From a phage, in sequence record MZ956761.1: DNA of 64,000 nucleotides, one strand, 5' to 3'. Position numbers and translations under genes: made by a program. Shown here one piece after another: positions 4,490 through 50,474 of this stretch (the stretch's first letter is position 1; each line of letters starts with the position of its first letter). Under the pieces are notes generated by a model. That model was not told the DNA's origin. It made no database searches and saw nothing but the letters and a program-made list of their open reading frames with translations.

Positions 4490-4582
4490 ATGGCTTGAAA
4501 CTCAAATTTCTTTTTCTGACCGAATGATTCAGCAATATAAGCGATTGCATCAAATGTTTTACAATACTTGAAAATAATAAAT

Positions 4583-4607
4583 ACCCTTATCTATTTAAGG
4601 TAAGGGT
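4583..4607 (+). promoter_or_regulatory. RNA hairpin sequestering the gene 49 ribosome-binding site
   Basis: ACCCTTA (4583-4589) / TAAGGGT (4601-4607) inverted repeat, right arm contains the RBS 7 nt before ATG 4613; T4 gene 49 is known to be regulated this way. Confidence 0.55.
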
Positions 4608-4612
4608 TTATT

Positions 4613-5086
4613 ATGTTATTGACTGGCAAATTATATAAAGAAGAAAAACAGAAATTTTATGATGCACAAAACGGTAAATGTTTAATTTGCCAACGAGAAC
4701 TAAATCCTGATGTTCAAGCTAATCACCTTGACCATGACCATGAATTAAATGGACCAAAAGCAGGAAAGGTACGTGGATTGCTTTGTAATCTCTGCAATGC
4801 TGCAGAAGGTCAAATGAAGCATAAATTTAATCGTTCTGGCTTAAAGGGACAAGGTGTTGATTATCTTGAATGGTTAGAAAATTTACTCACTTATTTAAAA
4901 TCCGATTACACCCAAAATAATATTCACCCTAACTTTGTTGGAGATAAATCAAAGGAATTTTCTCGTTTAGGAAAAGAGGAAATGATGGCTGAGATGCTTC
5001 AAAGAGGATTTGAATATAATGAATCTGACACTAAAACACAATTAATAGCTTCATTTAAGAAGCAACTTAGAAAGAGTTTAAAATGA
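4613..5086 (+). CDS. 49: recombination endonuclease VII (Holliday-junction resolvase)
   Basis: 157 aa; CLIC...HLDHDHELNG...CNLCN zinc/HNH-like motif; matches recollection of T4 gp49. Confidence 0.9.
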   Translation: MLLTGKLYKEEKQKFYDAQNGKCLICQRELNPDVQANHLDHDHELNGPKAGKVRGLLCNLCNAAEGQMKHKFNRSGLKGQGVDYLEWLENLLTYLKSDYTQNNIHPNFVGDKSKEFSRLGKEEMMAEMLQRGFEYNESDTKTQLIASFKKQLRKSLK

Positions 5087-15939: not shown

Positions 15940-15975
15940 AGAGATTATGCTTTAATTTATTAGAGTATAATCTCT
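15940..15975 (+). promoter_or_regulatory. hairpin-embedded -10 element (9-bp inverted repeat)
   Basis: AGAGATTAT 15940-15948 / ATAATCTCT 15967-15975, TATAAT 15966-15971. Confidence 0.4.
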
Positions 15976-28095: not shown

Positions 28096-28132
28096 TTTAC
28101 AAGCCGACAAGACTATGGTATAGTAGTCTTGT
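28095..28132 (+). promoter_or_regulatory. early promoter embedded in inverted repeat
   Basis: GTTTAC 28095-28100, TATAGT 28119-28124, arms ACAAGACTA 28107-28115 / TAGTCTTGT 28124-28132. Confidence 0.55.
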
Positions 28133-28153
28133 TGGTTAAATGAGGAGATTGTT

Positions 28154-28597: not shown

Positions 28598-28640
28598 GTT
28601 TACAAGCTGATAGAGTTGTGTTATAGTAATTCTATCAGCT
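28598..28640 (+). promoter_or_regulatory. early promoter embedded in 10-bp perfect inverted repeat
   Basis: GTTTAC 28598-28603, TATAGT 28622-28627, arms AGCTGATAGA 28605-28614 / TCTATCAGCT 28631-28640. Confidence 0.6.
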
Positions 28641-32113: not shown

Positions 32114-32319
32114 AATTTGATTTTTATGCATGGCAAAAAGCCGGGCGACCGGCTAGTCGAGCATTTGGTTCTGATGGATATAATATTAGAGCCCATTGGA
32201 AGTTTAATGCTCCAGCCGATTATTCTCCGGTAATTATTAACGGTGATGTTGTTATATTAACTAAAATTGGGTATTTTAACGTTCCGCAAGAATTTATTAT
32301 AAATAGTCATGTAATTTAA
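32110..32319 (+). CDS. hypothetical protein (69 aa)
   Basis: ATGA-coupled ORF. Confidence 0.45.
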   Translation: MKFDFYAWQKAGRPASRAFGSDGYNIRAHWKFNAPADYSPVIINGDVVILTKIGYFNVPQEFIINSHVI

Positions 32320-32335
32320 ATAAAAGGAGAATTAC

Positions 32336-32581
32336 ATGGCTAGTACTCGCGGTTATGTTAATATTAAAACATTTGAGCAAAAATTAGATGGAAATAAGAA
32401 AATTGAAGGAAAGGAAATTTCTGTAGCTTTCCCTCTTTATTCTGACGTTCACAAAATTTCTGGTGCTCATTACCAGACATTCCCTTCAGAAAAAGCAGCA
32501 TATTCTACAGTATATGAAGAAAATCAACGTGATGCATGGATTACTGCAAACGAAGATTTGTGGAAAGTAACTGGTGAATAA
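32336..32581 (+). CDS. soc: small outer capsid protein Soc
   Basis: 81 codons; sequence agrees with my recollection of T4 Soc. Confidence 0.85.
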   Translation: MASTRGYVNIKTFEQKLDGNKKIEGKEISVAFPLYSDVHKISGAHYQTFPSEKAAYSTVYEENQRDAWITANEDLWKVTGE

Positions 32582-32585
32582 ATTC

Positions 32586-32612
32586 AAGGACTCCTTTGGG
32601 AGTCCTTTTTTC
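32586..32612 (+). terminator. intrinsic terminator after soc
   Basis: AAGGACTCC-TTTG-GGAGTCCTT-TTTTT. Confidence 0.7.
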
Positions 32613-32677
32613 ATTTTACCGGTTTACTTTCCACAATGAGTATGGTATAATAGAATTATCTTATAGAGGAGATCACT

Positions 32678-33902: not shown

Positions 33903-34055
33903 ATGACGTTAGAAGAGGCTAAAGCTAAAGCAAATGAAGCAATGGATTTGCTTCTTAAAATTGGCAGTAAAATGATGGAAGAAAATGAGAAATATATCCA
34001 GGAAAACAAAATTCCTGACGGTCCATTAGTAGGCAAAAGGAAATCATATGATTGA
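33903..34055 (+). CDS. hypothetical protein (50 aa)
   Basis: ATG 33903; below ORF-track cutoff. Confidence 0.3.
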
Positions 34056-34518
34056 AGTAGCAAAACATTATTCAATAGAATTTATGTCTAAAGAAGGTAA
34101 ATCAGTAAATACACTTGATAAAAAGTGCTCATTAATTATTCCTTTAGCAGAAAATCCGGATATTTTAATTAAAGATATAAAAGAAAGAAAATATCCAGAA
34201 AATGTTATTCTAATTATAAAGCATACTGAAGATATTTTGCAGAATACTGATTCACCGTTTTCTTCTTCTGAAGCTTTAACTATTAAAGGCTATAAAAGAG
34301 CTCATGAATATGGTCTTTTTGACCTGTTTGAAGACGATAAAGTTAAATTAGCTAGTCAACCTTCTAAAAGTAAAACATTCATTATTGAAGATATTAAAGA
34401 TATAAATGCATTTGTTAAGATGGTCTGGGCTCATTTTGATGTTGGACTACGCTGGAGAATGTCCGAAGAAGAAAGAAAGATTATTGAAACTAATCGTCGG
34501 TTTGGTTTTTATCGCTAG
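34048..34518 (+). CDS. hypothetical protein (156 aa)
   Basis: ORF. Confidence 0.5.
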
Positions 34519-34526
34519 GAATTAAT

Positions 34527-34709
34527 ATGGATTTATTTGAGATGTTAGAAGATAATCATTCTACGAATATCCAGAATGATTCTAGTGATTATAAGAAAGA
34601 GTACCGTATAGTATTACAGAATTATGGAATTGAAGCCCCAGATGCTCTTCTAGAAGAACTAGCTTCATACCATCTTGACCCTCCGCCCTGGGCTCCCTGG
34701 GCAAAATAA
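34527..34709 (+). CDS. hypothetical acidic protein (60 aa)
   Basis: ORF. Confidence 0.4.
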   Translation: MDLFEMLEDNHSTNIQNDSSDYKKEYRIVLQNYGIEAPDALLEELASYHLDPPPWAPWAK

Positions 34710-34720
34710 TTCAAAAAGTT

Positions 34721-34779
34721 GTTTACTTTCCTTCCTAACAATGATATGATAGCTTCTGAAGTATACGGAGGCTATCATG
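34721..34779 (+). promoter_or_regulatory. early promoter plus inverted repeat overlapping the modB start codon
   Basis: GTTTAC 34721-34726, TATGAT 34745-34750; arms ATGATAGC 34748-34755 / GCTATCAT 34771-34778. Confidence 0.45.
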
Positions 34780-35400
34780 ATTATTAATCTTGCAGATGTT
34801 GAACAGTTATCTATAAAAGCTGAAAGCGTCGATTTTCAATATGATATGTATAAAAAGGTCTGTGAAAAATTTACTGACTTTGAACAGTCAGTTCTTTGGC
34901 AATGTATGGAAGCCAAAAAGAATGAAGCTCTTCATCAGCAGTTGAATAAAATCGTTAAAAAGCATTTAACTAAATCACCTTATCAGCTATATCGTGGTAT
35001 ATCAAAATCGACAAAAGAACTCATTAAAGATTTACAAGTCGGAGAAGTGTTTTCAACGAACAGAGTAGATTCATTTACTACTAGTTTGCATACAGCGTGT
35101 TCTTTTTCTTATGCCGAATATTTCACTGACACAATACTTCGCTTAAAAACTGATAAAGCTTTTAATTACTCTGACCATATCAGCGATATTATACTTTCTT
35201 CTCCTAATACTGAGTTTAAGTATACATATGAAGATACTGATGGATTAGATTCAGAACGTACTGATAACTTAATGATGATTGTACGTGAACAAGAATGGAT
35301 GATTCCAATTGGAAAGTATAAAATAACTTTTATTTCAAAAGAAAAATTACACGATTCGTTTGGAACATTTAAAGTGTATGATATTGAGGTAGTTGAATGA
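34777..35400 (+). CDS. modB: ADP-ribosyltransferase ModB
   Basis: 207 aa; R (LYRG), S-T (FSTN), EQE motifs of R-S-E ARTs; size and position as T4 ModB. Confidence 0.75.
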   Translation: MIINLADVEQLSIKAESVDFQYDMYKKVCEKFTDFEQSVLWQCMEAKKNEALHQQLNKIVKKHLTKSPYQLYRGISKSTKELIKDLQVGEVFSTNRVDSFTTSLHTACSFSYAEYFTDTILRLKTDKAFNYSDHISDIILSSPNTEFKYTYEDTDGLDSERTDNLMMIVREQEWMIPIGKYKITFISKEKLHDSFGTFKVYDIEVVE

Positions 35401-35999
35401 AATATTCAGCAATGCAATTAAAAGATTTTAAAATCAAATCAATGGATGCATCTGTGCGTGCTTCTATTCGTGAAGAATTACTTTCTGAAGGATTTAATTT
35501 ATCCGAAATTGAACTTTTAATTCATTGTATTACTAATAAGCCAGACGATCATTCTTGGTTAAATGAAATAATCAAATCTCGTTTGGAACCAAACGATAAA
35601 CCTCTTTGGAGAGGTGTTCCAGTTGAGACTAAACAGGTGTTAAATCAAGGAATTGATATTATTACATTTGATAAAGTAGTATCAGCTTCATATGATAAAA
35701 ATATAGCTCTACATTTTGCTTCTGGATTAGAATACAACACACAAGTTATTTTTGAATTCAAAGCTCCTATGGTATTTAATTTCCAGGAGTATGCTATAAA
35801 AGCTCTACGTTGTAAAGAATACAGCCCGAGTTTTAAATTTCCGGATAGCCATCGCTATCGTAATATGGAATTAGTTTCAGATGAACAAGAAGTAATGATA
35901 CCAGCTGGAAGTGTATTTAGAATTGCAGATAGATATGAGTATAAAAAGTATTCAACATACACTATCTATACTCTTGAATTTGAAGGATTTAATCTATAA
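35397..35999 (+). CDS. modA: ADP-ribosyltransferase ModA
   Basis: 200 aa; LWRG, SAS, EQE motifs; ATGA-coupled to modB. Confidence 0.75.
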   Translation: MKYSAMQLKDFKIKSMDASVRASIREELLSEGFNLSEIELLIHCITNKPDDHSWLNEIIKSRLEPNDKPLWRGVPVETKQVLNQGIDIITFDKVVSASYDKNIALHFASGLEYNTQVIFEFKAPMVFNFQEYAIKALRCKEYSPSFKFPDSHRYRNMELVSDEQEVMIPAGSVFRIADRYEYKKYSTYTIYTLEFEGFNL

Positions 36000-36055: not shown

Positions 36056-36085
36056 GTTTACAAGCTGAAGTAAAAATGTTATAGT
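36056..36085 (+). promoter_or_regulatory. T4-type early promoter
   Basis: GTTTAC 36056-36061, TATAGT 36080-36085. Confidence 0.55.
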
Positions 36086-36115: not shown

Positions 36116-36862
36116 ATGAAACTGACTAATAATCAAATTCGTAAAATTAAACGTCGTCTAGAGCATACTCAGGCATCTGCTAAAAGACGTTCTAAAGATT
36201 TTAACTTAGACTTCAATTACATTAAGAACATTTTAGATCAGAAAGTTTGCGCTTACTCAGGAGAACCTTTTGATAATCGTATTGAAGGAGAGAAATTATC
36301 ATTAGAACGTTTTGATAATAACGTTGGATACATTAAAGGGAATGTTATTGCAGTAAAGAAAAAGTATAATACATTTCGTTCTGATTATACTTTAGAAGAG
36401 TTGATTGAAAAGCGTGATTTATTTGCTTTGCGAATTGGTCGTTCATCTGCGAAAAAAGTTCATAAACTAAATTTAGATGAAAAGAAATGGGCTAAAATCA
36501 AAAAGATTTATAATCAAATTAAAGCTATACAGAAAAAACGTGAAAACCGAATTGAACACATTTCTCAGCTTTCTAAATCAAAACAAACCTCTGATATTAA
36601 GCTAACGATTGTAGCACTCAAAGCTCGTATTGATGGTTCTCGCATAGCTGAAGGCGCTGAAGTTGTTAAATTGAACGTTCTTCTTAAAGGCTCGGATTGG
36701 AAAACTGTGAAAAAGTTGTCAGAAGCAGAAATGCAATATGATATGTGTGATAAAATTATTCAAGGTGTAGAGCGGTATCAAAACTTGTCTTTTATTGATA
36801 AACTTAAACTGAAAAGAGGATATCCGCTAAATTGTTCAATTTTTAAACTTATCCGAGGATAA
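36116..36862 (+). CDS. hypothetical protein (248 aa) in the srd position
   Basis: Lies between modA and dda.1 as srd does in T4; degenerate HNH-like DNN-GY-KGN segment. Confidence 0.5.
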   Translation: MKLTNNQIRKIKRRLEHTQASAKRRSKDFNLDFNYIKNILDQKVCAYSGEPFDNRIEGEKLSLERFDNNVGYIKGNVIAVKKKYNTFRSDYTLEELIEKRDLFALRIGRSSAKKVHKLNLDEKKWAKIKKIYNQIKAIQKKRENRIEHISQLSKSKQTSDIKLTIVALKARIDGSRIAEGAEVVKLNVLLKGSDWKTVKKLSEAEMQYDMCDKIIQGVERYQNLSFIDKLKLKRGYPLNCSIFKLIRG

Positions 36863-50302: not shown

Positions 50303-50332
50303 GTTTACAAGACTGTTCCTCTGTGGTATTAT
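50303..50332 (+). promoter_or_regulatory. T4-type early promoter
   Basis: GTTTAC 50303-50308, TATTAT 50327-50332; first 16 nt identical to promoter 22379. Confidence 0.55.
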
Positions 50333-50360
50333 TACCCTATCAACTACGGAGGAACAGAAA

Positions 50361-50474
50361 ATGAAAAAGATTGTTAAAGCTATATGGAATGTAGTTATAA
50401 TACTAGTAGTTTTGAGTATATTCCCAATCGTTTTAATGATTGATGTATTAAACGCTTACTTTGGATTTATGTGA
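50361..50474 (+). CDS. candidate hydrophobic micro-protein (37 aa)
   Basis: ATG with GGAGG RBS; TM-like. Confidence 0.3.
   Translation: MKKIVKAIWNVVIILVVLSIFPIVLMIDVLNAYFGFM

Follow-up and report, generated by a model that had tools for sequence, protein, structure and literature searches.

A conserved RNA hairpin embedded in the early promoter of modB in a T4-like phage, a candidate translational insulator

The start of modB, the first ADP-ribosyltransferase (ART) gene of its cluster in a T4-like phage, lies in a strong and conserved RNA hairpin, the 5' strand of which coincides with the -10 region and discriminator of the gene's own putative sigma-70 early promoter. We propose, with a probability of about 65%, that this hairpin is a cis-acting RNA translational insulator and that ModB would be made only from transcripts of the embedded promoter. 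RNAs initiated upstream, either at a promoter at 32623-32651 or by read-through of the soc terminator, would carry both strands of the hairpin. The 19 pairs would form once the right arm had been transcribed, and both the SD sequence and the AUG would be buried, so that the long RNA would remain untranslated for modB and its GGAG motif would also be hidden from the RegB nuclease. RNAs starting at about 34757/58 would contain the right arm only, with an open 20-nt leader allowing immediate translation and with the SD exposed to RegB cleavage. The output of ModB would thus be set only by the firing of its own promoter, so that the toxic enzyme would be produced in a brief pulse early on, and modA, with its own SD, would stay unmasked.

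The window, meaning the whole stretch of 64,000 nt that was analyzed (MZ956761.1), belongs to a Tequatrovirus with about 97% identity to T4. The region 34300-35500 showed 100% identity to Escherichia phage ADUt, and for about 500 Tequatrovirus genomes, T4 among them, the identity was about 96-98%. From the -35 element through the start codon, T4 has the same sequence except for two substitutions, both outside the core helix of the hairpin. By comparison with the T4 record, modB occupies 34777-35400 on the + strand and encodes an ADP-ribosyltransferase of 207 aa, with modA.3 (34048-34518) upstream of it and srd at 36116-36862. The genes from mrh.2 through modA.2 are tightly packed, and modA.2 (34527-34709, + strand, 60 aa) is the last gene of this upstream unit. 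Its stop codon is separated from the base of the hairpin by 31 nt, and because this gap is too long, a ribosome terminating at modA.2 should not melt the hairpin. The CDS of modA (35397-35999, + strand, 200 aa) has its own SD (GAGG, 35386-35389), and its ATG overlaps the modB stop codon (ATGA), an arrangement that may allow independent translation. The ModB of T4 ADP-ribosylates ribosomal protein S1 and other translation proteins, and RNAylation of the same proteins has recently been shown.

The hairpin extends from 34740 to 34785 and contains 19 pairs, 13 of them contiguous and six beyond a one-base bulge (G34779). In its left (5') arm (34740-34758, + strand), the -10 hexamer forms the anti-AUG strand and the discriminator AGCUUCUG forms the anti-SD strand. 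After a 7-nt loop, AAGUAUA (34759-34765, + strand), the right (3') arm (34766-34785, + strand) contains the SD GGAGG (34767-34771), the AUG (34777-34779) and codons 2-3. The GGAGG pairs with CUUCU(G) of the left arm, G34779 of the AUG is bulged or wobble-paired, and in the conserved core helix 34745-34756 are paired with 34768-34779. The folding energy was -19.6 kcal/mol with a z-score of -6.65 (0 of 200 shuffles were as stable), and the reverse strand folded to only -10.1 kcal/mol. The hairpin ranked about 10th among all 50-nt segments on the + strand of the 64 kb and was the most structured of 100 SD-preceded ATG starts scanned in the window. The same scan recovered two known hairpins that lie inside the window and served as positive controls, those of soc (32298-32342, ATG 32336, -14.6 kcal/mol, with a late promoter TATAAATA at 32298) and gene 49 (4567-4616, ATG 4613, -16.3 kcal/mol, with a product of 157 aa), both of which were weaker. 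A scan of 34000-35600 against Rfam at E <= 10 gave only chance matches, and no Rfam family covered the hairpin.

A sequence-only reading of this DNA had proposed an exact 8-bp inverted repeat around the start codon with a 17-nt loop holding the GGAGG. The complementarity between ATGATAGC and GCTATCAT is real, and GCTATCAT (34771-34778) and the modB ATG were correctly placed. The left arm had been assigned to 34748-34755, which reads GATAGCTT; ATGATAGC sits at 34746-34753. The 8 bp captured the core of the structure but not its extent, as the full stem has 19 pairs and the loop only 7 nt, and the GGAGG is not in the loop but base-paired in the right arm, where it is sequestered along with the AUG. 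The proposed 8-bp stem with its 17-nt loop alone reached only -6.9 kcal/mol. The window contains 69 exact inverted repeats of 8 bp with a loop of 3-20 nt, vs. about 35 in Markov simulations; such repeats are thus common, and the one proposed was not far above chance.

The putative promoter within the hairpin is of the T4 early type and spans 34721-34750 on the + strand, with GTTTAC at 34721-34726 as the -35 element, a 17-nt spacer, TG at 34742-34743 and the -10 hexamer TATGAT at 34745-34750. Its hexamers matched 9 of the 12 consensus positions, in addition to the TG. In T4 early promoters GTTTAC is placed at -36 to -31 (Nolan et al., PMC1524935), so that the start is predicted at 34757, or at 34758, which is a purine; the left arm ends with these two bases. 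A "predicted early promoter" is annotated at the same site in the record of phage fPS-65, and the GenBank records of T4 carried no promoter features there. Patterson-West et al. named the T4 early promoters Pe11.5, Pe12.8, and Pe15.0, with modA, modB, srh, and mrh downstream (PMC6024815). The promoter-like sites at 36057-36085, 34722-34750, and 32623-32651 of the window map to 11.83, 13.17, and 15.27 kb of T4, respectively. As each lies about 0.3 kb from a named position, we equate them with Pe11.5, Pe12.8, and Pe15.0, and the embedded promoter would accordingly be T4 Pe12.8. Its activity and exact start site are thus predicted from consensus geometry together with the promoter name in that study (PMC6024815). 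Between 32299 and 36200 there was no TATAAATA late promoter and no MotA box. Since the embedded promoter appears to be sigma-70 early and not late, the masking logic would not be that of an early-to-late switch.

The accessibility of the start was then calculated as the opening cost, i.e., the ensemble energy required to open positions -15 to +6 around the start. For modB of the window it was 15.1 kcal/mol in the -100 to +40 context; the known cases in the window gave 13.7 kcal/mol (soc) and 17.7 kcal/mol (gene 49). The corresponding long RNAs of 14 phages gave 13.5-20.4 kcal/mol, and with Cronus (16.6) and RZH (22.3) the range over 16 phages was 13.5-22.3 kcal/mol. The promoter-initiated RNAs required only 1.9-6.4 kcal/mol. 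In the window, RNAs starting at 34754-34761 had weak folds (-2.6 to -3.8 kcal/mol) with an open start region. The second ART genes, used as controls, gave 4.4-8.3 kcal/mol (9.2 in ESCO47); modA of the window, which is without a sequestering hairpin, had an opening cost of 8.3 compared with 15.1 kcal/mol for modB. A comparable difference between long and short RNAs was seen at only one of about 20 other early-promoter-proximal starts of the window, that in the ndd.4 region. For comparison, the helices at T4 e, soc, 49, and I-TevI block 30S binding, and synthesis from gene e is lowered about 100-fold (PMC3014915). The sequence-only reading had held that read-through RNAs mask the start and that RNAs from the local promoter lack the left arm. 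The first point is supported in silico by the cost of opening the long RNAs, and the second is predicted from the promoter geometry, with the putative start at the 3' end of the left arm. This masking model was supported by all the computational and comparative tests that were run.

The comparison between phages provides the best support for the model. The 55-nt element is nearly invariant within Tequatrovirus, where 502 records were at least 95% identical, and the rare stem changes seen there all converted G-C to G-U (C34766T and C34753T) or A-U to G-U. The same layout, with GTTTAC, about 17 nt, a -10 element in the left arm, and SD and AUG in the right arm, was found in nine named genera of the Tevenvirinae, namely Tequatrovirus (this window, T4, and others), Gelderlandvirus (Melville), Kanagawavirus (Kosakonia 305 and IME523), Mosigvirus (OLB35), Gaprivervirus (VR26 and CJ20), Dhakavirus (VR5 and MN04), Jiaodavirus (PSE-D1), Karamvirus (RZH), and Roskildevirus (Cronus), as well as in the unclassified Klebsiella phages kv_tblp5, Clarke_MM3, and Phi_KR8. 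In all of them the gene that follows is the first ART gene of the cluster. Between genera the stem shows compensatory changes, such as AGC/GCU to GAC/GUC or GGC/GCC, and UAUGAU/AUCAUG to CAUAAU/AUUAUG, and the loop differs in both sequence and length. In kv_tblp5 the -10 element is TAGTAT and pairs with AUACUA, and in Cronus the left arm is shifted into the spacer between the -35 and -10 elements with the GGAGG still masked. The stem sequences of these two phages are unrelated, and the layout is the same.

Covariation was evaluated in an alignment of 22 sequences that was built with a covariance model, as plain MAFFT mis-registered some of them. In this alignment 95.8% of the cells could pair, compared with 32-55% when the partners were slid by 1-3 columns. 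Compensatory double changes occurred at 5 of the 12 pairs (22 cells), and none of 500 shuffles reached the observed percentage paired, the number of double-change cells or the covariation score. Because an alignment fitted to a modeled structure leans toward that structure, we prefer the slid-partner control as evidence. The covariance-model scores were 42-68 bits on the + strand and about 20 on the - strand. The frequent G-U pairs, the low - strand scores, and the weak - strand fold together show that selection acts on the RNA of the + strand. Such covariation is proof of a selected RNA structure, not of what the structure does.

The second (modA-like) ART gene was without such a structure in this window, p000v, OLB35, VR26, VR5, MN04, and ESCO47, even in VR5 and MN04, where it has its own early promoter. 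An ART homologue of a jumbo phage was likewise without a hairpin. An attempt to tie the hairpin to ModB orthology was unsuccessful, as every ART outside Tequatrovirus, with or without a hairpin, scored closer to T4 ModB than to T4 ModA. Since the orthology link failed, the hairpin is associated with the position of the first ART gene. A search of IMG/VR with the ModB protein returned only six near-identical loci, and the proteins of other genera added a few more.

Several variants of the locus were also observed. In p000v (locus L015, 1015-1075) and F2 (L042, 285-345) the promoter, hairpin, and ATG are kept and are followed by only an 18-codon remnant; the body of the first ART gene is deleted, and the modA-like gene with its own promoter remains. 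In HP3.1, an isolate from in vitro directed evolution (L010, 144-204), a single G is inserted into the SD arm (ACGGGAGG) and creates an extra bulge, the sole indel in the element among the Tequatrovirus sequences examined. In five loci from Kanagawavirus and Klebsiella phages (L013, L021, L026, L028, and L029) the SD region reads AAUGGAGGUCAUCAUG; this places an AUG within the hairpin, in frame with the likely start and 12 nt ahead of it, and without an SD of its own. This AUG is probably not used, and it could mislead gene callers.

The masking model requires read-through RNA, for which a second early promoter on the + strand is the likely source. It lies at 32623-32651 (TTTACT, 17 nt, TATAAT with TG), just past the soc terminator (32586-32607), and we infer that it is T4 Pe15.0; its transcripts would run over mrh.2 through modA.2 into modB. 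On the + strand there were no terminator-like sites between this promoter and 34745, until the modB hairpin itself. With regard to timing, a middle or late promoter was sought between the soc late promoter and modB, and none was found. Published RNA-seq reads of T4 cover both modA.2 and modB (PMC6024815). At 5 min the reads per nt were 5.3 for mrh.2, 5.6 for mrh.1, 1.4 for mrh, 2.6 for srh, 1.8 for modA.4, 3.4 for modA.3, 4.3 for modA.2, 1.4 for modB, 2.0 for modA, and 2.1 for srd (Table S1, PMC6024815). There was no step up at modB in these 5-min counts, the density of which was about threefold below that of modA.2. Decay of untranslated RNA, Rho polarity or partial termination could each account for this drop, and they cannot be separated in counts as noisy as these (1.4-5.6 reads per nt across the operon). 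The approximately fourfold swing in density along the apparent single operon from mrh.2 to srd suggests segmental decay or processing.

The GGAGG of modB is also relevant to RegB. In the study of Durand et al. (2006), in which all intergenic GGAG motifs of T4 were tested, modB appears among the RegB sites cited as cut in vivo (PMC1702504). In their Discussion the authors liken modB (their Figure 3A) to a structured motB mutant RNA, which implies that a stable structure made the modB RNA resistant to RegB in vitro, and they explain the cutting in vivo by cleavage of the nascent RNA before it folds (PMC1702504). The present results suggest a simpler reading, in which transcripts of the embedded promoter, as produced in vivo, lack the left arm from the outset. 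Cutting in vivo together with resistance in vitro would fit the masking model if the RNA used in vitro included the left arm. In our folding calculations the modB GGAGG was single-stranded only on the promoter-initiated RNA. The 3' part of the site, CUAUCA, matches the RegB consensus GGAGRAYARAA poorly.

Two other functions of the RNA hairpin were weighed against the insulator. Its main job might be to shield the GGAG of the modB SD from RegB on long polycistronic RNAs, sparing the modA/srd message, with the translation block being secondary. RegB cleaves at GGAG in the SDs of early genes, secondary structure inhibits this nuclease (PMC3014915), the reports on modB RNA described above agree with such a shield, and the GGAG is kept in the right arm of most homologues. 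We nevertheless consider it unlikely as the main function, as the Gaprivervirus loci (VR26, CJ20, L037, and L038) have the SD GAGAGG without GGAG and still form a 15-pair hairpin, so that RegB is not the whole story. Moreover, pairing of the AUG would be needless for a shield, and loss of the GGAG would have been a simpler evolutionary route. Alternatively, the hairpin could terminate or attenuate transcription intrinsically, or serve in RNA processing or stability, and so end the mrh-modA.2 unit just before modB. A pattern scan flagged 14 pairs followed by ATTATTAATC, the threefold drop in read density falls at this point, and a length of about 20 bp is near the size of an RNase III substrate. 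An intrinsic terminator is defined by a G+C-rich hairpin and a directly following U-tract that are conserved as a unit, which is not what was found here: the U-tract is interrupted in this phage (tail AUUAUUAAUC) and missing in other genera (tails GCUUCAAGUUUCU, GAACAUCAUCAAA, and GCUUAUCCAAAUC) although the hairpin is conserved, and the conserved feature is the pairing of the SD and AUG themselves. The stems of 12-16 bp in other genera are short for RNase III as well. A terminating or processing role is thus distinctly unlikely.

It was also considered whether there is a functional RNA structure at all. The complementarity might be a by-product of adjacent constrained motifs, without a function of its own. 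TATGAT is a near-complement of AUCAUG, the pyrimidine-rich start region is a near-complement of the SD, a G-U wobble lets the UAU in any -10 hexamer pair with AUG, and short inverted repeats occur often in DNA as AT-rich as this. The covariation argues against this reading, because compensatory changes (AGC/GCU, GAC/GUC, and GGC/GCC) also fall outside the -10 element, the SD, and the AUG. In addition, no such pairing was seen at about 17 other early-promoter-proximal starts of the window nor at the promoter-proximal modA of VR5 and MN04, and in Cronus the left arm lies in another part of the promoter with the SD still masked. We therefore regard a mere by-product as highly improbable. Finally, the inverted repeat could act as DNA, as the operator of a dimeric protein or as a cruciform controlling the early promoter, since operators typically lie where it does, across the -10 element and the start site. 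This is scarcely credible, since in DNA or on the - strand many of the G-U pairs of the + strand would become A-C mismatches, the - strand scored about 20 vs. 42-68 bits and its fold was half as stable, and between genera only the pairing is kept and not the stem sequence, unlike in a protein recognition site.

The insulator thus remains the preferred reading, with two further points against it. The embedded and the upstream promoters are both early, so that the gain from silencing modB on the long RNA is not evident. Candidate benefits are a limit on the dosage of a toxic enzyme, a sharp pulse produced by one promoter in combination with RegB, silencing in late read-through from the strong soc promoter, and protection of the long RNA. 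ModB has been detected as an early protein (PMC9697503). Furthermore, initiation by ribosomes might likewise precede folding if RegB and S1 have access to nascent RNA; a hairpin with a 7-nt loop should fold very fast, which would counter such initiation. In general, S1 aids initiation on structured start sites and is the cofactor of RegB cleavage. A feedback in which ModB-modified S1 alters the opening of the long RNA or the cutting of the SD by RegB, making modB an S1-sensing and self-limiting gene, is therefore conceivable but very unlikely. A more modest version is that the hairpin may represent an unrecognized class of elements that make early genes of T-even phages translatable only from their own promoters.

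The ndd.4 region (50303-50361) contains a second hairpin with an early promoter inside it (GTTTAC at 50303-50308 and TGG-TATTAT, with the hexamer at 50326-50331). Its stem pairs 50313-50327 with 50343-50357 (-23.2 kcal/mol, z = -4.5), and the right arm buries a GGAGG ahead of an ORF that starts with the ATG at 50361 and encodes a hydrophobic peptide of 37 aa. The difference in opening cost between the long and short RNAs was 14.6 kcal/mol, and C/U differences between T4 and the window keep G-C or G-U pairs. In contrast to modB, the left arm lies in the spacer between the -35 and -10 elements, the -10 element is in the loop, and the AUG is just outside the stem. Together, modB and ndd.4 hint at a small class of hairpins with embedded early promoters. 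A much weaker version of the modB geometry was observed at 308-366, where an early promoter (GTTTAC...TGGTATAAT) shows partial pairing with AUUAUUAUG, the sequence with which a 333-aa ORF begins (-11.6 kcal/mol, with a difference of 3.5 kcal/mol). Perfect stems of 15-16 pairs with a -10-like motif (TATAGT or TATAAT) in the loop or right arm were also found near GTTTAC promoters at 28102-28137, 28605-28640, and 15940-15975. The starts downstream of these three stems are unmasked, with a difference between long and short RNAs near 0, and the stems may be combined terminator-promoter junctions.

In the literature searched, no description was found of how ModB synthesis is limited. A full-text literature search found no description of a hairpin at the modB start, which older T4 papers might hold, and modB is absent from the sequestered starts listed in the main review of T4 post-transcriptional control (PMC3014915). 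A stable structure in modB RNA received a passing mention in the 2006 study (PMC1702504). What the present analysis adds is a conserved RNA element, without an Rfam family, in nine named genera of the Tevenvirinae. If the insulator reading is true, it would also explain in a simple way the puzzle of Durand et al. (2006), namely RegB cutting in vivo and resistance in vitro, and it would call for caution when modB is cloned or expressed with its native upstream sequence.

The modB element shares features with three known systems. Like the targets of RegB and S1, modB has GGAG(G) in an early-gene SD and is cited as cut in vivo by Durand et al. (PMC1702504). Its 3' context GGAGGCUAUCA is a poor fit to the A-rich GGAGRAYARAA, and, unlike at typical RegB sites, the start point of the transcript would determine whether the site is hidden in a very stable helix. 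In the homing-endonuclease genes Aeh1 mobE, T4 segB, and I-TevII/III, a hairpin at the RBS limits the synthesis of a potentially harmful protein from read-through RNA (PMC3014915), as is proposed here for modB. The gene class differs, those hairpins are not reported as being built from the -10 element of an early promoter, and no report was found of their conservation across genera as broad as that seen here.

The closest resemblance in design is to T4 e, soc, 49, and I-TevI, in which upstream-initiated RNAs form a local helix that includes the SD and/or AUG, and a promoter lies in or next to its 5' strand; the transcripts of this promoter are without that strand and are translated (PMC3014915). 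The sequence-only reading had drawn this parallel with 49, soc, and e, and it holds for the design but not for the type of promoter. The modB SD and AUG are likewise placed in a stable helix on the upstream-initiated RNA, and the soc and gene 49 hairpins of the window have a calculated stability similar to or below that of the modB hairpin. The promoter of the known cases is late (TATAAATA) and turns an early-off state into a late-on state, whereas that of modB is predicted to be sigma-70 early. Compared with that class, only modB uses the -10 hexamer itself as the anti-AUG strand, and only there is the upstream promoter also early. Because an early promoter replaces the defining late one, the modB element is a variant and not a member of the e/soc/49/I-TevI class. 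If the insulator reading is true, the promoter-in-hairpin device of T4 would be not only an early-to-late timer but also a means to restrict an early gene to its own promoter.
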